A stretch of 5,840 bases of DNA, from the UHGV virus genome UHGV-0296476, one strand, 5' to 3'. This DNA comes from a virus. Of the stretch, positions 1-5,456 are shown piece after piece. Each line of letters begins with the position of its first letter. Position 1 is the stretch's first letter. A program made the position numbers and the translations under genes. The notes under the pieces were generated by a model, which had not been told where the DNA came from, made no database searches, and was given only the letters and a program-made list of their open reading frames with translations.

Positions 1-115
1 GGGCAGAGCTCTACTACTTCGTAGTCGTCATAATACATGTCCGAGGAGCGGACGAGTAACAACGCGCGGACCATTCTTGCGCTTCGACGACTTACGACGA
101 CGATAGGTCGAATCA

Positions 116-475
116 TCAGCCTTCATTTTCCTTTTTATTAAAAGTTAACACCAGCATTCCCGGATACAGTTGGACCGTAACACAGGAGTCAGAAAAATAA
201 CGCACAAACTCATTAAAATGCTCCTGCGAAAGATACCCAAAGCGACCAAATTCCTTTTCAGCGTCACTAAGACTTTCCACAAAGGCTACTACAAACGTAG
301 CAGGGACGGCGAGGCTTTCCAAGAAATCCCAGAAACTCAATTCAGATTCCTCATCAAAACTGCCGGCAGGAAGAAGATGGCCATAATGGAAACGATAATA
401 ACCACGGCACTCCGCAGAGGGGCGAAAGATAACCTGAGCGACTGCGCCCAAACTTGTTTTTTCTTCTGTCTTCAT
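116..475 (-). CDS. hypothetical protein, 119 aa, unknown function
   Basis: ATG at 473-475 and TGA at 116-118. It lies on the same strand as all other genes, after a terminator-like hairpin downstream of VP2. There are no recognisable motifs. The overlapping plus-strand 116-aa ORF is K/R-rich antisense noise. Confidence 0.4.
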   Translation of the reverse strand: MKTEEKTSLGAVAQVIFRPSAECRGYYRFHYGHLLPAGSFDEESELSFWDFLESLAVPATFVVAFVESLSDAEKEFGRFGYLSQEHFNEFVRYFSDSCVTVQLYPGMLVLTFNKKENEG

Positions 476-539: not shown

Positions 540-571
540 AAAACCGCGCAAATATTGTTCATTATTCGCGC
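540..571 (-). terminator. terminator-like hairpin overlapping the VP2 stop codon
   Basis: On the coding strand the sequence reads GCGCGAATA-ATGAACAA-TATTTGCGC, a 9-bp stem that includes one G.U pair (the same position is an A/C mismatch on the plus strand). It is followed by GG then TTTTG. The T-run is short, so this is a weak intrinsic terminator or attenuator. Confidence 0.25.
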
Positions 572-1794
572 AGATAGCGACGACGAACATGCGTACCACC
601 GACATAATCACCACGACGGTCGTATGACTCCTGATACGTATCATAATCACGAGGCTCAACAGGAGACGCCGAAGTGAGCCCCTTTGTAGCAACAGCACCA
701 GCAACACCAGCACCAACACCAACAAGCGTACGAAGGATGCCATAGCCAAGTGCATTCTTTTCACTACGAAGACGCCAACGATTAAGGCCACGCGACAGAT
801 CAGCCTCAGAGAGATCAAGGCTAAGGAGTGCAGCAAAAATATCCTTACCAGTAAGTTCCTGAACGCCAATCTGTTTACCTTTATCATCGTAGCGGGGAAC
901 CTTAACCTTTGTTTCCCAGTTAACGCTAAACCAATTCTGCATATCTTTAAGACGGAGCGACGCAACATCGCTCTCGATACCAATATTCTCCGCACGAGCG
1001 GCCGTCTCAAAGACGCGCATCCAAGTCAAGGCAATACCAGCCTCATACTCACGATTCAAATACTTAACATTATACTCACGAAGGCCAAAATATTCCTCCT
1101 TCAACCGTGCAACACGAGCCATATACTCATCCAGGCGATACGACTCCGTAGACTTCATAAAGTCACGATTCAACTCCACAATATCAGCCTGTGCAGCATT
1201 CAAACGTGCAAGATCCTTAGCAGACGAGGCATTCGACTCAGCAAGCGACAAATTAAAGGCATCCATAGAAGCACGCCAATCGCGAGAATGAGACTCACCA
1301 GCCAAACGTTCAGCCTCAGCATTATCACGATTCGCAGCAGCACGATTACGCTCAACACCAGAGCGAGCCAGCATCATCTCACCAGAGGCAGAACTAGCTG
1401 CCGTGATACCGGAACCAAGAGCACCTAAGGAATTTTGAACATCCATACCAGCAGCACCTACACCTTGACCAGAAGAACCGGGGCCAGAAGCAGAATTACC
1501 AGAGACAGCGACACCAGACTGTCCAAGAACACCGGCAGGTGTAACACCAGCAGAACGCCAACGGGCAAGCAACGCCGAGGGATCATTATACGCATTCAGA
1601 TAATCTGTTTGCTGCTTCCAATAGTCATATTGCTTTTGCATCTGAGTAAGGGCATACTCCTGTTGCAAGGCCATTTCCTTCTGGCGATATCTCCACTGCT
1701 TCCTAGTACGTACAGCAGAACCAAGCGCAGAAACACCTCCTCCTGCTATCGACGTTCCGGCACCAATGAGGGCACCTGTAACAATAGGATCCAT
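562..1794 (-). CDS. minor capsid / DNA pilot protein VP2 (gpH-like)
   Basis: 410-aa ORF with ATG at 1792-1794. Gly-rich N-terminus IVTGALIGAGTSIAGGGVSALGS, a Q/Y-rich coiled-coil-like stretch, then NDPSALLARWRSAGVTPAGVLGQ and a Gly/Ser low-complexity tract. This architecture is typical of Microviridae VP2/H proteins, and the gene sits in the structural module. Confidence 0.65.
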   Translation of the reverse strand: MDPIVTGALIGAGTSIAGGGVSALGSAVRTRKQWRYRQKEMALQQEYALTQMQKQYDYWKQQTDYLNAYNDPSALLARWRSAGVTPAGVLGQSGVAVSGNSASGPGSSGQGVGAAGMDVQNSLGALGSGITAASSASGEMMLARSGVERNRAAANRDNAEAERLAGESHSRDWRASMDAFNLSLAESNASSAKDLARLNAAQADIVELNRDFMKSTESYRLDEYMARVARLKEEYFGLREYNVKYLNREYEAGIALTWMRVFETAARAENIGIESDVASLRLKDMQNWFSVNWETKVKVPRYDDKGKQIGVQELTGKDIFAALLSLDLSEADLSRGLNRWRLRSEKNALGYGILRTLVGVGAGVAGAVATKGLTSASPVEPRDYDTYQESYDRRGDYVGGTHVRRRYLRE

Positions 1795-1796
1795 AA

Positions 1797-2105
1797 CTAC
1801 GGGGTAGTAAAGGAACGAGAACGAATAATATAATCCACACGGACAGTGTCAATGTGAACACCTTCGCGCTGCACCTTAGCCTGGGCAGAACAGCCAACAG
1901 TAAAGAACGCGGCAAGGGCTGCAACAATCGCCGCAATCAACGTCCAAAACTTTTTTGACGTGATCAAATCTACAAATCTAGACATAAAGAGAACGATAGA
2001 GAAAAGCGCGGACACTACCGCAGTAGTTGCATCACATATAGCTATGGACAAAGGTTTTACGCAGTTCACTGCATCTCTCTGCGACAATGCCCGCGCACAT
2101 AACAT
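1797..2105 (-). CDS. small membrane / signal-peptide protein (candidate lysis or exclusion protein); alternative internal start at 1985
   Basis: ATG at 2103-2105, 18 nt after the acidic-protein stop, gives 102 aa with two hydrophobic segments (TTAVVSALFSIVLF and FWTLIAAIVAALAAFFTVG) and a charged C-terminal tail. The internal ATG at 1983-1985 gives 62 aa, MSRFVDLITSKKFWTLIAAIVAALAAFFTVGC|SAQAKVQREGVHIDTVRVDYIIRSRSFTTP, which has a basic n-region, an h-region and a lipobox-like TVGC (or an SPase I site CSA|Q). Stop TAG at 1797-1799 is followed by TT and then the VP2 ATG (TAGTTATG), indicating translational coupling in the same gene flow. Confidence 0.5.
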   Translation of the reverse strand: MLCARALSQRDAVNCVKPLSIAICDATTAVVSALFSIVLFMSRFVDLITSKKFWTLIAAIVAALAAFFTVGCSAQAKVQREGVHIDTVRVDYIIRSRSFTTP

Positions 2106-2125
2106 ATATTGTCGAGTAAAGGGGG

Positions 2126-2434
2126 CTATTTTTTCTCTTCACTATTCGAATCAGCAGCCTCAGAAGCCTTAGCAGGACGAGACGACAATTCACTCTCAAT
2201 CAACTCCTGACCAACTTCAACGCCATCGAATTTATCCATACGAGCAAAAGAATTCGGATCAAAATCGATATCGGGATCAAACTTCTCACCTTTGGCCCAT
2301 TCATTCTGTCCAGCCTGAACATCAGGACGACCAGGCAATATGTCCACATTGCCTGAACCGTCCAGGATCGAACGAATACGCTGACCTCGGGAAACATATT
2401 CAGGAAGATCTTCAACTAAATACTCAATCATCAC
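2126..2434 (-). CDS. small strongly acidic protein, possible internal scaffolding protein (VP3 / gpB-like)
   Basis: 102-aa ORF on the coding strand, 57 nt downstream of the VP1 stop. It is rich in D/E (DPDIDFDPNSF, ESELSS, SEEKK). First codon is GTG at 2432-2434 followed by ATG at 2429-2431. Its size, charge and position beside the capsid gene fit a scaffold role, but I see no sequence-level identity. Confidence 0.5.
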   Translation of the reverse strand: MMIEYLVEDLPEYVSRGQRIRSILDGSGNVDILPGRPDVQAGQNEWAKGEKFDPDIDFDPNSFARMDKFDGVEVGQELIESELSSRPAKASEAADSNSEEKK

Positions 2435-2491: not shown

Positions 2492-4339
2492 CTAACGATT
2501 CGCAAGACGGGTCGCAAACGTCTTATTAACAAGATTCTTCTTTCTCACACTGTACGACAAGTTCACAAAGAAATTATCCTCAGTAGTCGAAGAAAAAGGA
2601 CTATTCACCGTAGACATATCGACAAACAAAAGAGAGTAAACTTTCAAAGCCGTCGAGGTACCAAAAACAGAAACCGATCGTTGTTGAACCCAATACGAAT
2701 ACAAGGGAATCTCCTCAGAAGCAGACACATCACCAGCAGGCACACCATACGCAAACTGACCCTGCACACGATCATAAGAGGCACGGAACTCATTAAAGCA
2801 AGGCTCCTGAGCAACAGAAGTAAACGCAGCATAGGGAAAATCATAAGCAAGCTGAACCAAAGAAACATCCTGATAACCGATATCATTATACACGGGGTTG
2901 AAATAATCAGCGCCCTGATAACGAGCCCAATCCGGCAAAATACCAGTCCAATAATACACAGGACGGATACTAAACATATCAATCATATAGCCAGGCTCAC
3001 GGAAATAATACGATTGAGAGCGCCCAAGCTTCGAGTTAAATGCAATGGCACCACCTTGCGAACCAAGAACACCAGTAGAACCAAAATTACTCGAACCAGC
3101 TTGATTAAGGACAACCTGGACATTAACCGTCTGAGAAGCCGAAAAAAGCAACTTCGGACGATCGACATGCTCAATCTTCGAGGCAAAGAACGTTTCAAGC
3201 CAATCACTAAAACGAGAGCCACCAGCACCAAGAAGGTCCTTATACTCCTGCAAACGTGCAGCAACAGCCAACTGCGGGATCGTAGTAACACCATGCATCG
3301 ACACAGAACTATTCGAGGTTCCAGGAGGCAAGAGCCGGCTGAACCGGTCAGGAGACGACGGAACAACAGCCATAGGATGAGCTATACTCAAATACGAATA
3401 TCCAGTACCATTCGTAACTACCGAAGCAGAGGTCGAGCTAAACTGGGTAGAGGGGTAACTAAAATAACCAGTAGTAGCAAACGGACTCAAAGAAGCAACA
3501 GGATAACCATCAGACATAGACGACGATACCGTAACATTCAAATCCGAATTCACAATCTGCAAGAACAAATTACCACGATTGAACGTACCGTCGGGGCTTG
3601 TCACAGCATTAGGATAAAACTGCGATTCATAATAAGCATCAAGATACTCCAAATTACCATAACGTTGAGTAAAATAAGCAGTCTCAGATTTAGCAACAGA
3701 ATATTCAGAATGATCAGAAACCAAAGTATGCGCAAGATACCAAGAAGCAGGCCAAGCAAACGAATACGTCTTCCACTGAGAAAACGAATAATAATTACGA
3801 ACTATATCCCAATATGCAAGATACGGATCAGCATTCACCCAAATGTTTTCAAGACCAGAAACGCTAGAAACACCAGACAGAGAAACCGAAGAATATTTTT
3901 GCGGAGTCATCACAGAACCACTATAAGCAATATCACGCGAGACTCCATACAACCACGACATCAAAGAATTAGGATAAGCTGTCTGACCAACACCGGCTTC
4001 ATAAAAACCAATTCCAGGAGTAGAGTTAAACAAAAAATTCAACGAAAGATCGTTCATATCAAACGCACTGGAATTAGTACGCATCTCAGGATGATACAAC
4101 TGCAAAGGCACCCAGAAACGATGCAGACGCACCGTATACGGGTTGAACGAAGGTACAGCGAGAGGATTCGAACGGACATCAATGCCCTGATCAATTGTCA
4201 CACGGTCACGAGCATTGATAAAGTCCACACGCACAGGATACAAAATACCGGGAGTGCAGGTAAAAGCCACACTCTCCGGCAAGTCATATCGCGAATAACC
4301 ATTCACGACATGCGAGATATAAGGCTGCTTAGCCATCAC
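2492..4339 (-). CDS. major capsid protein VP1 (Microviridae F-like jelly-roll capsid)
   Basis: 615-aa ORF, the largest in the window. The N-terminal block ...FTCTPGILYPVRVDFINARDRVTIDQ...NPYTVRLHRFWVPLQLYHPEM has the pattern I recall from gokushovirus/phiX174 F proteins (PGD..., R.H.FFVP.R..W). The first codon at 4337-4339 is GTG (shown as M in the track) and the next is ATG at 4334-4336, so the true start may be 4336. Stop is TAG at 2492-2494. Ser-rich surface-loop-like segments fall at aa 149-163 and ~296-318. Confidence 0.85.
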   Translation of the reverse strand: MMAKQPYISHVVNGYSRYDLPESVAFTCTPGILYPVRVDFINARDRVTIDQGIDVRSNPLAVPSFNPYTVRLHRFWVPLQLYHPEMRTNSSAFDMNDLSLNFLFNSTPGIGFYEAGVGQTAYPNSLMSWLYGVSRDIAYSGSVMTPQKYSSVSLSGVSSVSGLENIWVNADPYLAYWDIVRNYYSFSQWKTYSFAWPASWYLAHTLVSDHSEYSVAKSETAYFTQRYGNLEYLDAYYESQFYPNAVTSPDGTFNRGNLFLQIVNSDLNVTVSSSMSDGYPVASLSPFATTGYFSYPSTQFSSTSASVVTNGTGYSYLSIAHPMAVVPSSPDRFSRLLPPGTSNSSVSMHGVTTIPQLAVAARLQEYKDLLGAGGSRFSDWLETFFASKIEHVDRPKLLFSASQTVNVQVVLNQAGSSNFGSTGVLGSQGGAIAFNSKLGRSQSYYFREPGYMIDMFSIRPVYYWTGILPDWARYQGADYFNPVYNDIGYQDVSLVQLAYDFPYAAFTSVAQEPCFNEFRASYDRVQGQFAYGVPAGDVSASEEIPLYSYWVQQRSVSVFGTSTALKVYSLLFVDMSTVNSPFSSTTEDNFFVNLSYSVRKKNLVNKTFATRLANR

Positions 4340-5456
4340 AACTATATTTAAGGGTTAAACATGAGAACAAATCATCGTACTCCTTCTCAAAATACAAATC
4401 TGCCATATAATCTCCAAGATCGTTATCTGAGCCGACTATTCTACGCCGAATAGACGAAAAAACTCGGCTTGCAACGTCCGGACTCAGAAGACAACTAGGA
4501 AGATCACCAGTGCAATGAGAAGGAGCGGGGGTACGCAAATAAGGAACCAACCGAGGGGAGAGATACGAATATCGACGCCAACGGGCCAAGGTTGAAGCAC
4601 CAAATTGTAACTCAGCAAGTTTATCAACGATGCGACAAGCCAGGGAAGAAACGCAAACATGTGAATAATACCAAGAAGAACGAAGCTCCCGGGCTTGCTT
4701 ATCTTCTTCGGCCATATACTTATCATAGTATCGAGGAATGCGATAGTTAAACCGAGTACCGCGCGCAAAATCCAGATAAGACCAGGTCGAAACACGAAGT
4801 GAAGGGCGAGGCATGCGACCAAGATAATCGCCAACATGAGCAGAAACGAACTTACGTCGGTAAATCCGGGGGTTATACCAGTCACGCTGCTGCAAGTACT
4901 CGGGGACCATAGCGCCGACATCTTTAAGAATATACTTGACGCAATACCGGGCTCGGTTATGGGTAGCTTTACTAATCCAGACATATCCGAGGTCACCAAT
5001 GACACGTCGAAGCTCCGCATAGGAACAGGGGAGACCGAACAAGAACCCATGAAAATGGAGGCGGGGCACATCTCCTGTAACGGGATGAGTACCGAACTCC
5101 TGAAAGAAGGCATGCTTGATGCTTTTACCGAAAGCACGCCGAACACGCTCATTCCAAGCGCGAATAAAAGCCGAAGGGAATTGAACTGCAACCGCATAAA
5201 GCTTTGGAGAAATAGTTATTGTCACAAATACTGCCTGACGACGCTCATCTCGACAACGTGCAAGCTCACGTTCAAGACGGACGTACCACGCATTACGCTC
5301 GGCACGAAGACACTCTTCACACTTGCCGCAAGGAACAAGCAAGCGTTGACGGGCAAGGTCGCCAGGATGCTCAGCGAGCTGAACCGCGATCTCCTCAAAG
5401 GTGATGTCTCGTTTATAATAACGACGGTTGCGAATCCAAAGGGGCGACGTACACAT
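4329..5456 (-). CDS. Microviridae replication initiation protein, rolling-circle HUH endonuclease (VP4 / gpA-like)
   Basis: 375-aa ORF with an ATG start; the CATATG at 5454-5459 contains it. Motif 1 is FVTITI at aa 77-82. Motif 2 (HUH) is LHFHGFLF at aa 133-140, with codons checked at 5049-5057. Motif 3 is YCVKYILKD at aa 171-179 (two catalytic Tyr, YxxKY), with codons checked at 4932-4946. An N-terminal CGKCEEC cysteine cluster sits at aa 43-49 (nt 5310-5330). The stop codon TAA at 4329-4331 overlaps the capsid gene start by 8-11 nt. Confidence 0.85.
   Translation of the reverse strand: MCTSPLWIRNRRYYKRDITFEEIAVQLAEHPGDLARQRLLVPCGKCEECLRAERNAWYVRLERELARCRDERRQAVFVTITISPKLYAVAVQFPSAFIRAWNERVRRAFGKSIKHAFFQEFGTHPVTGDVPRLHFHGFLFGLPCSYAELRRVIGDLGYVWISKATHNRARYCVKYILKDVGAMVPEYLQQRDWYNPRIYRRKFVSAHVGDYLGRMPRPSLRVSTWSYLDFARGTRFNYRIPRYYDKYMAEEDKQARELRSSWYYSHVCVSSLACRIVDKLAELQFGASTLARWRRYSYLSPRLVPYLRTPAPSHCTGDLPSCLLSPDVASRVFSSIRRRIVGSDNDLGDYMADLYFEKEYDDLFSCLTLKYSCDG

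Follow-up and report, generated by a model that had tools for sequence, protein, structure and literature searches.

Microviruses are described as having almost no accessory genes and as exchanging genes between families only rarely (PMC9239249). Peptidases are lysis-associated accessory genes in this group (PMC9239249, PMC3394797), and the lysis-associated peptidase is one gene for which exchange across families has been documented (PMC9239249). Gokushoviruses lack a phiX174-like inhibitor of peptidoglycan synthesis and only some of them have acquired a peptidase (PMC7062461, PMC3394797, PMC9239249); phiHBP1, the one isolated Bacteroidota microvirus, carries such a gene (PMC13064476). Outside phiX174 and its relatives, the exit of microviruses from the cell is unexplained. 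In colicin systems, the lysis protein is made as a precursor of 47 amino acids (aa) with a 19-aa signal peptide (PMC2896534), and the signal peptides of colicin lysis proteins are lethal (PMC2896534, its references 47 and 48). Directly upstream of the cel gene lies a terminator stem-loop, T1 (PMC2896534). Here, we analyzed the UHGV virus genome UHGV-0296476, the ~5.8-kb genome of a single-stranded DNA microvirus of gut Bacteroidales, in which every gene lies on the minus strand (the whole stretch of 5,840 nucleotides [nt] is referred to as the window), and describe a very small lipoprotein gene (1985..1797, minus strand) that precedes the gene of the DNA pilot protein VP2. No description of this lipoprotein family was found in the searchable literature, and its product represents the best candidate so far for a factor of either phage exit or exclusion.

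The prolipoprotein gene and its product

The locus had been called as an open reading frame (ORF) of 102 aa (2105..1797, minus strand), for which the first-pass annotation considered two forms: a long form with two hydrophobic segments and a short form, starting from the ATG at 1985, with a signal peptide, a lipobox-like TVGC and a mature part of about 30 aa. The minus-strand frame is indeed open over all 102 aa and its last 62 codons constitute a gene, but the long form does not. We are highly confident that 1985..1797 is a free-standing late gene for an exported prolipoprotein of 62 aa (MSRFVDLITSKKFWTLIAAIVAALAAFFTVGCSAQAKVQREGVHIDTVRVDYIIRSRSFTTP) that is coupled to VP2 and lies behind a structured element. 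The gene starts with the in-frame ATG at 1985..1983 and ends with the TAG at 1799..1797. A search covering 5.8 billion proteins returned 296 homologues, among which the length of 102 aa was kept only in the closest ones (at least 86 % identity). Most of the others are 61 to 62 aa long, and most homologues align solely to the C-terminal 60 % of the 102-aa query, covering only the short form.

The short form is under strong purifying selection. In a codon alignment of 82 distinct sequences from the fetched genomes, the entropy summed over codon positions 1, 2 and 3 amounted to 27.5, 16.7 and 76.7 bits, respectively, and up to four synonymous codons were found behind invariant residues. The median pairwise ratio of nonsynonymous to synonymous substitution rates (dN/dS) was 0.086 (1461 pairs); the signal peptide by itself gave 0.075 and the mature part 0.10. 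Conservation with variation mainly at third positions, on which the first-pass annotation had let its proposal depend, is therefore present. In a 24-sequence alignment of the short form, the invariant residues comprised S10, K11, F13, W14, T15, L16, V21 to A23 and A26 to F28 in the leader, Cys32, and G42, H44, D46 to D51, I53 and S56 in the mature part.

Based on hydropathy and the PROSITE PS51257 rule, residues 1 to 31 (1985..1893, minus strand) form a predicted signal peptide that comprises a basic n-region (R3, K11 and K12), an Ala-rich h-region (FWTLIAAIVAALAAFF) and the lipobox F-T-V-G before Cys. The PS51257 pattern reads {DERK}(6)-[LIVMFWSTAG](2)-[LIVMFYSTAGCQ]-[AGS]-C, and the accompanying rule places the Cys at positions 15 to 35 and a K or R within the first seven residues. 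The short form agrees with the pattern (AALAAFFTVGC) and with the rule (Cys32 and R3), while the long form, with its Cys at position 72, fails the rule. The earlier view of the short form as a signal peptide followed by a lipobox and a mature part of about 30 aa was thus borne out by the pattern, the invariant Cys and the conservation. The codon of the lipobox Cys (Cys32, residue +1 of the mature lipopeptide; 1892..1890, minus strand) is invariant in 129 of 129 typed loci, at which the Cys occupies precursor positions 31 to 35 and is preceded by S or G at position −1. It should be noted that most alleles of the type designated B below carry E at position −2 (LESC), which the pattern does not permit.

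The mature lipopeptide (1892..1800, minus strand) is 31 aa long, basic (isoelectric point of 9.3) and devoid of any further Cys; its only Pro in the window is the terminal residue. The version present in the window, here referred to as type A, has the core AKVxRxGVHIDTVRVDYIIRS, in which hydrophobic and polar residues alternate. AlphaFold2, run on the 24-sequence alignment, predicted a confident helix for the signal peptide alone; for the mature part, the predicted local distance difference test score was ~50 and the helix that was modelled had no support. No acidic residues follow the Cys, which argues against export of the mature peptide to the cell surface in Bacteroidota.

The gene is directly followed by VP2 (1794..562, minus strand), whose assignment relies on PHROG pilot-protein matches and on synteny in ~125 genomes. 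At the junction TAGTTATG (1799..1792, minus strand), the lipoprotein stop is separated by 2 nt from the VP2 start, the ATG at 1794. The translational coupling to VP2 that had been proposed from the window was corroborated by related genomes, 114 of 116 of which retain a stop, 1 to 2 nt and the VP2 ATG. Within the lipoprotein gene and just upstream of VP2, a sigma-70-type promoter match (TTGACA, 16 nt, TATTAT; 11 of 12 positions) occurs at 1852..1825 on the minus strand and is formed by the conserved I-D-T and Y-I-I codons. We discounted this match, since promoters of the host phylum are of other kinds and the codons beneath it vary, and it probably has no relevance in Bacteroidota. Existing records show annotation gaps for this gene family: in GenBank entries MG945498, MG945683, MG945680 and MG945716, a feature "similar to VP2" spans the lipoprotein ORF (e.g., MG945498, 3403-5028), 10 other GenBank records leave it without annotation, and elsewhere it is listed as hypothetical.

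The structured element and the long form

The region between the acidic 102-aa ORF (2434..2126, minus strand) and the lipoprotein gene is occupied by a structured noncoding element (1986..2122, minus strand), supported by its fold and by covariation. Its parts in the window are the 5′ motif CCTTTACTCGACAATATATG, a GC helix that closes it (2096..2091 paired with 2011..2006), further helices inside and, at 2005..1986, a tail rich in T. The RNA folds with −43.9 kcal/mol (z = −2.9). In an alignment of 47 loci, 97 % of the cells were paired, the outer 6-bp GC helix was invariant, and the inner helix (helix 2) showed compensatory changes in 7 of its 8 pairs. The covariation score reached 0.26, compared with 0.13 after shuffling (none of 500 shuffles reached 0.26) and 0.03 to 0.09 when the partners were slid. 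A terminator-like site was predicted at 2022..2007.

Across genomes, the element is recognized by a conserved order of blocks, namely, CCTTTACT(T/C)GAC(G/A)ATATATG, GTGCGCGG, ~70 to 90 nt, CCGCGC and the T-rich tail TTTTTCTATCGTTCTTT. The distance between the end of this block and the lipoprotein ATG is 2 nt in the window clade, 7 to 12 nt in most genomes, and 68 to 226 nt in others. Even in two close relatives whose lipoproteins are 84 to 87 % identical (L009 and L013), the block lies 226 and 111 nt away from the ATG, respectively.

The putative start codon of the long form (2105..2103) falls inside this element and is spurious. Only 35 of 80 relatives have, ahead of the short-form Met, an extension that contains an ATG and stays open for 35 codons or more, and in 24 of the 80 a stop lies within 5 codons of that Met. 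Furthermore, the N-terminal translations MLRARTP..., ...ICYVRGPL... and ...YVTCADP... are one and the same DNA block read in three frames. As judged from these comparisons, codons 1 to 40 of the long form (2105..1986) are a translation of the noncoding structured element and hence an artifact. This bears directly on the reading of the 102-aa form as a class II holin or pinholin with two transmembrane domains (TMDs), which the first-pass annotation had derived from the two hydrophobic segments. The ORF is open from the ATG at 2105 in the window and its closest relatives, and residues 19 to 42 of the long form are moderately hydrophobic. The extension is nevertheless confined to a minority of relatives, interrupted by early stops, spread over three frames and displaced by the insertions in L009 and L013; the underlying DNA covaries as a structure, and there is no endolysin for a holin to serve. 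With its first "TMD" being the noncoding structured element and the long ORF being unconserved, the two-TMD reading was rejected, and we assign it a practically negligible probability. The 102-aa call is wrong and should be corrected in the annotation.

As for the element itself, it could be an attenuator or terminator, an mRNA stabilizer, a complementary-strand origin or a Rep site. Its 5′ motif, CCTTTACT(C/T)GAC(A/G)ATATATG, resembles the core of the phiX174 origin (ACTTGATAT). No Rfam match was obtained for the element, and it is absent from the prophage lineages described below. We also considered the element as a dif/XerCD phage attachment site (attP) and rejected this, as the window contains no dif-like match and the Alistipes prophages have attachment repeats of another sequence, which are positioned elsewhere and belong to a lineage without this block.

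Distribution and exchange of the lipoprotein gene

The order Rep, VP1, acidic ORF, lipoprotein and VP2 was found in ~75 IMG/VR genomes. In these genomes, identity to the window was 72 to 79 % for the lipoprotein, ~62 % for the major capsid protein VP1, ~50 % for Rep and ~35 to 40 % for VP2, so that the lipoprotein is the best-conserved protein of the genome. In a second sampling, relatives were picked by VP1 and not by the lipoprotein, and the 80 best VP1 relatives yielded 48 new loci. Thirty-five of these carried type A; 10, which had at first seemed to lack the gene, carried type B at the same locus; and the other 3 were two partial contigs and one contig that ends inside the locus. The apparent absence of the gene from L113 was an artifact of the contig end, as this contig lacks a terminal repeat and breaks inside the locus, and three GenBank relatives that tblastn had not reported also carry the gene. 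Collectively, the gene is present at this locus in every complete genome of the capsid-defined clade. The position that the first-pass annotation had suggested comparing among related microviruses is thus conserved, together with the spacing between the lipoprotein stop and VP2. The GenBank relatives of the window belong to uncultured Microviridae that were sampled from pig, rodent and lemur faeces.

Type B combines the same signal peptide with an unrelated mature peptide (TARHYVVQSASSIKSGDTTRTTITYEQIGNFKRP); it was listed for L102, L104, L108, L117, L119, L122, L124, L126 to L128, L135 and L136. The two types do not track the capsid tree: the VP1 proteins of L128 (type B) and L120 (type A) are 91 % identical, and VP2 of L128 is 79 % identical to that of a type-A genome. 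When L128 is compared with L120, identity breaks down precisely at the conserved element and the lipoprotein start, which places a recombination breakpoint at the element. Given this swap of A for B and the collapse of identity, the lipoprotein gene behaves as an exchangeable cassette.

Lipoproteins of at least 70 % identity occur in four microvirus lineages in which Rep and VP1 are only 25 to 35 % identical. Alistipes genomes carry such relatives in their prophages, and metagenomic contigs contain them as well, at one and the same chromosomal site between znuA and a relA-HIT-HTH cluster. The prophages constitute three further lineages, with Rep and VP1 25 to 35 % identical both to the window and among themselves, and are flanked by dif-like direct repeats containing TTATGTTAAA (L001, 9614-9642 and 15490-15512; L003, 6907 and 12637; also L142 and L143). 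Microvirus proviruses of Bacteroidales flanked by dif have been described (PMC3091885). In the prophage lineages, the lipoprotein gene is intact and is the first gene after the left attachment site (attL), not beside VP2. The window clade showed no dif-like motif and, by this token (PMC7062461), is probably strictly lytic, which in turn would necessitate a mechanism of exit. Synonymous sites between the window and a prophage lineage are saturated (proportion of synonymous differences, 0.65 to 0.75), and recent horizontal transfer between lineages is therefore unsupported; ancient transfer and extreme constraint are inseparable as sources of the cross-lineage similarity. Downstream of VP2 in the Alistipes prophage L001, two short ORFs (14937-15085 and 15092-15217) appear by eye to code for peptides that have one TMD and a basic tail (MANSFLFLGNFGAGEVIIIFIFVVPFLIF... 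and MDSVIIIQILGVLVFVAFIWTL...) and are possible membrane or lysis candidates of that prophage lineage.

This distribution bears on the possibility, which we rank second and hold to be less likely than not, that the protein is a lipoprotein of superinfection exclusion or receptor masking, like T5 Llp or Cor. It would bind the inner face of the receptor, probably a SusC-type TonB-dependent transporter, or block the incoming VP2 conduit, and would thereby protect the infected or lysogenic cell and spare the progeny inactivation on debris and vesicles. Types A and B and further types reside on one signal peptide and are exchanged between genomes with 91 % identical VP1, as is typical of specificity or arms-race loci; the nearly invariant type A, found alongside capsids of ~26 % and VP2 proteins of 25 to 40 % identity, is hard to reconcile with the masking of a phage-specific receptor or pilot. 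The intact first gene beside attL in dif-integrated Alistipes prophages speaks for exclusion, as does the fact that carrier and lysogenic states of gokushoviruses confer a superinfection immunity whose mechanism is unexplained (PMC7062461); at the same time, the gene is universal in an apparently nonintegrating, lytic clade with a genome of ~5.8 kb. The topology of a small periplasmic lipoprotein matches that of Llp, which binds the FhuA plug from the periplasm (PMC9586334), and the gene adjoins and is coupled with the pilot gene; however, the protein resembles neither Llp nor Cor in sequence, its mature part has half their size, and a second Cys pair is missing. Finally, expression appears to be late and behind an attenuator-like hairpin, while Llp is made soon after infection (bioRxiv 10.64898/2026.03.26.714494).

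Profile-based searching of 1.84 billion representatives yielded 68 proteins at E ≤ 0.001. These matches included the type-A mature peptide behind two other signal peptides (three in all), divergent mature peptides with G-[VLF]-H-x-D-[TS]-V in common, and the signal peptide of the family followed by unrelated peptides. About 35 cluster representatives were 180 to 220 aa long, with an ORF that continues without a stop for ~130 more codons and ends, just before Rep, in the conserved, basic J-like tail RRGGRRGKPRPKxKTIPLGGSHL (e.g., L003, 7001-7609, and L137, 174-791; proteins P0121 to P0159). At the one such locus inspected, L003, the long homologue continues in an alternative frame over the next gene. 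A real fusion domain was not adopted as an explanation, as the middle part is unconserved and the L003 homologue overlaps an ORF that is read in another frame and has a product similar to part of P0141; the long homologues represent either tolerated read-through or a real fusion.

The recurrence of the [H/C/V]-D-[T/S]-[V/L]-x-[V/Y] hallmark throughout the family raises the question of a mimic of a TonB box or a beta-signal. According to this explanation, D-T-V-R-V-D-Y on a lipid tether would pair with the C-terminal domain of TonB, the plug of a TonB-dependent transporter or BamA/BamD and stop TonB-dependent transport, which could lead either to the exclusion of phages that depend on TonB or to a failure of the envelope. 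The Ton boxes of enterobacteria follow the pattern D-T-[ILV]-[VT]-V, and processes that depend on TonB are inhibited by a Ton-box pentapeptide in the periplasm. The Ton box DEVVVTG of the Bacteroides thetaiotaomicron SusC protein Bt1763 (PMC7782687) has D-x-V-x-V in common with the lipopeptide. Nevertheless, the match is a post hoc one of five residues, expected by chance in ~0.3 % of 30-mers by a rough estimate; type B (TARHYVVQSASSIKSGDTTRTTITYEQIGNFKRP) fits it poorly, and the AlphaFold2 confidence for the mature part is low. We consider this mimicry improbable.

The pairing of mature peptides with different signal peptides also bears on an uncleaved signal anchor resembling phiX174 E or a single-gene lysis protein (Sgl) of single-stranded RNA (ssRNA) phages, whose N-terminal helix would inhibit the synthesis or flipping of peptidoglycan precursors (MraY/MurJ-type). 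In E, the TMD is the active part. The helix predicted here, of ~17 to 19 residues, is Ala-rich and unusually long for a lipoprotein signal, with the Cys as far as position 31 to 35; selection on the leader is as strong as on the mature part, and the leader stays constant while the C-terminal part is swapped. An invariant Cys with a small residue at −1 would, however, be unexplained in a protein that is never processed, and the type-A mature peptide is highly conserved behind three different signal peptides. Moreover, the TMD lacks a proline, and the positive-inside n-region would place the C terminus in the periplasm, opposite to E. A function of this kind thus appears very improbable.

The remaining genes of the window, all on the minus strand, are Rep/VP4 (5456..4329), VP1 (4339..2492), an ORF of 119 aa (475..116) and, overlapping its end, a small basic ORF of 32 aa (126..28; MKADDSTYRRRKSSKRKNGPRVVTRPLLGHVL). 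The latter looks like a J/VP8-type DNA-binding protein, as judged from its sequence; it is conserved throughout the clade as ...RKKKK..G.RVVTRPLGGKVL and lacks annotation in relatives. In one relative (L005, IMGVR_UViG_3300029605_000092), identity to the window amounts to 99 % for Rep, 98 % for the lipoprotein and 95 % for VP2 but to only ~65 to 69 % for VP1, a pattern that indicates replacement of the capsid gene via recombination between otherwise near-identical genomes.

Proposed function and comparison with known systems

Searches of Pfam, PHROGs, NCBIfam, PADLOC and PDB sequences with the long and short forms, the mature peptide and other alleles gave weak matches to the signal peptide only. 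For the colicin lysis family PF02402 (Lysis_col), no match appeared up to E = 1 with the long form, nor up to E = 10 with the short form, the mature peptide or any of four other alleles. With regard to Llp and Cor, PHROGs and Pfam listed only weak matches (E ≥ 0.007) to other families, confined to the signal-peptide/TMD region, and the PHROG matches to "Rz-like spanin" were likewise weak (E = 0.13 to 0.48) and restricted to the signal peptide. Pfam and PHROGs detected neither an endolysin nor a peptidase among the six main ORFs, in agreement with the earlier remark that no lysis gene is recognizable elsewhere, and no M15 peptidase was found in the window or in 141 related loci.

By analogy, our tentative preference, held with less than even confidence, is that the lipoprotein is a release or lysis factor that would act like the colicin lysis proteins, also called bacteriocin release proteins (BRPs). 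The precursor would be inserted through Sec, modified by Lgt with a diacylglyceryl group at Cys32 and cleaved by signal peptidase II, as in the standard bacterial lipoprotein pathway. The gene is the first cistron of a pair coupled with VP2, directly behind a conserved stem-loop with a U-rich tail, and due to this position and the coupling its expression is probably attenuated and runs alongside that of the structural proteins. The colicin lysis proteins accumulate in the envelope and compromise it; their signal peptide adds toxicity, and a terminator hairpin directly upstream holds their dose sublethal. In the lipopeptide, the invariant core GVHIDTVRVDYIIRS is prone to form a strand, which suggests that it might dock onto a conserved envelope protein by adding a beta-strand. 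In favor of a release function, every complete genome of the clade, which is probably lytic and has a minimal gene content, contains the gene, no second candidate for lysis emerged, and the degree of conservation follows the genus of the host, not the phage lineage.

Several points weigh against this reading. There is no sequence similarity to Lysis_col or any other lysis family. Colicin lysis proteins cause quasi-lysis through outer membrane phospholipase A in enterobacteria, while the cargo here would be virions of 25 to 30 nm and the barrier the peptidoglycan of Bacteroidota. An arms-race function, such as exclusion, would account at least equally well for the swap of mature peptides between L128 and L120. 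The type-A mature peptide is also joined to two other signal peptides, so that the conserved signal peptide would not be the sole effector. Furthermore, the gene is kept intact in prophages, the terminator role of the element was inferred from its shape alone, and overprinted E-like lysis genes may exist elsewhere in the genome.

A bolder version of release by the lipoprotein, which we regard as speculative and rather unlikely, would make it the first single-gene lysis effector of the lipoprotein type and, for the peptidase-less Bacteroidota microviruses, the first lysis gene. In this version, a lipid-tethered periplasmic peptide of ~30 residues would kill by strand addition (D-T-V-R-V-D-Y) to TonB, to a transporter plug or to the beta-barrel assembly machinery (BAM), and swappable "warheads" (A, B and others) on a constant signal peptide would be shuffled among unrelated lineages that share a host genus. 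Were the protein lytic, it would represent a new class of "protein antibiotic" against the envelopes of Bacteroidales; if it acts in exclusion, it would be the first such factor for single-stranded DNA (ssDNA) phages of Bacteroidota. The gene of 62 codons is conserved beyond the capsid, is carried throughout a gut clade known from the faeces of animals such as pigs, rodents and lemurs, and is common to four deeply divergent Alistipes-tied lineages; its product is predicted to act in the periplasm, and it is short enough for direct synthesis and testing.

Among known systems, the o-spanins (Rz1-like) are also small phage lipoproteins, and the product of the gene adjacent to the one described here, VP2, has an N-terminal TMD and coiled coils (PMC3394797). 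In contrast to o-spanins, however, the lipoprotein has no holin or endolysin partner, is not Pro-rich and has no periplasmic Cys for intermolecular disulfides, and VP2 is a virion pilot protein and not an i-spanin.

Like phiX174 E, the lipoprotein is the only small membrane-targeted protein of a microvirus without a muralytic enzyme, and it combines a conserved N-terminal helix with a replaceable C-terminal part. E is overprinted inside gene D, lacks a lipobox, needs Pro21 in its TMD and has a cytoplasmic C terminus. The lipoprotein, in contrast, is encoded by a free-standing gene with third-position variation in its own frame, contains an invariant lipobox Cys and no TMD proline, and has a C terminus that is predicted to be periplasmic; the E-like function entertained in the first-pass annotation consequently found no support as far as membership is concerned.

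The annotation had also pointed to exclusion lipoproteins of the Llp/Cor type. These are small phage lipoproteins facing the periplasm, and action from the inside on an outer-membrane transporter is plausible for the protein described here as well. The mature part of Llp is ~61 aa long, so the 31 aa found here amount to about half, and the gene is a late, VP2-coupled one in an ssDNA phage. Llp contains a Cys11-Cys58 disulfide that is shared with Cor (PMC9586334), while the lipidated Cys is the only one in our mature peptide. Lacking a sequence match, the size and the intramolecular disulfide, the lipoprotein is not a member of that family.

The colicin lysis proteins or BRPs (PF02402; ColE7 Cel and pCloDF13 BRP) differ from the lipoprotein by having no sequence similarity to it, by the length of the signal peptide (19 aa, compared with 31 aa here) and of the precursor (47 compared with 62 aa; PMC2896534), and by the setting, which is here the phylum Bacteroidota with a virion of 25 to 30 nm as the would-be cargo. 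The likenesses are those of architecture. In both cases, a small selfish replicon encodes a very small lipoprotein, here a predicted one, whose mature part falls into one size class (~30 residues). A role of its own for the signal peptide is known for BRP and is seemingly present here, as suggested by its dN/dS. The lipoprotein gene lies directly behind a stem-loop of terminator-like shape, which covaries, ends in a T-rich tail and precedes the ATG by 2 nt in the window and by 7 to 12 nt in most relatives, and may thus correspond to the terminator of the colicin systems; and in both systems the role, proposed here by analogy, would be to let a macromolecular product out of the cell.

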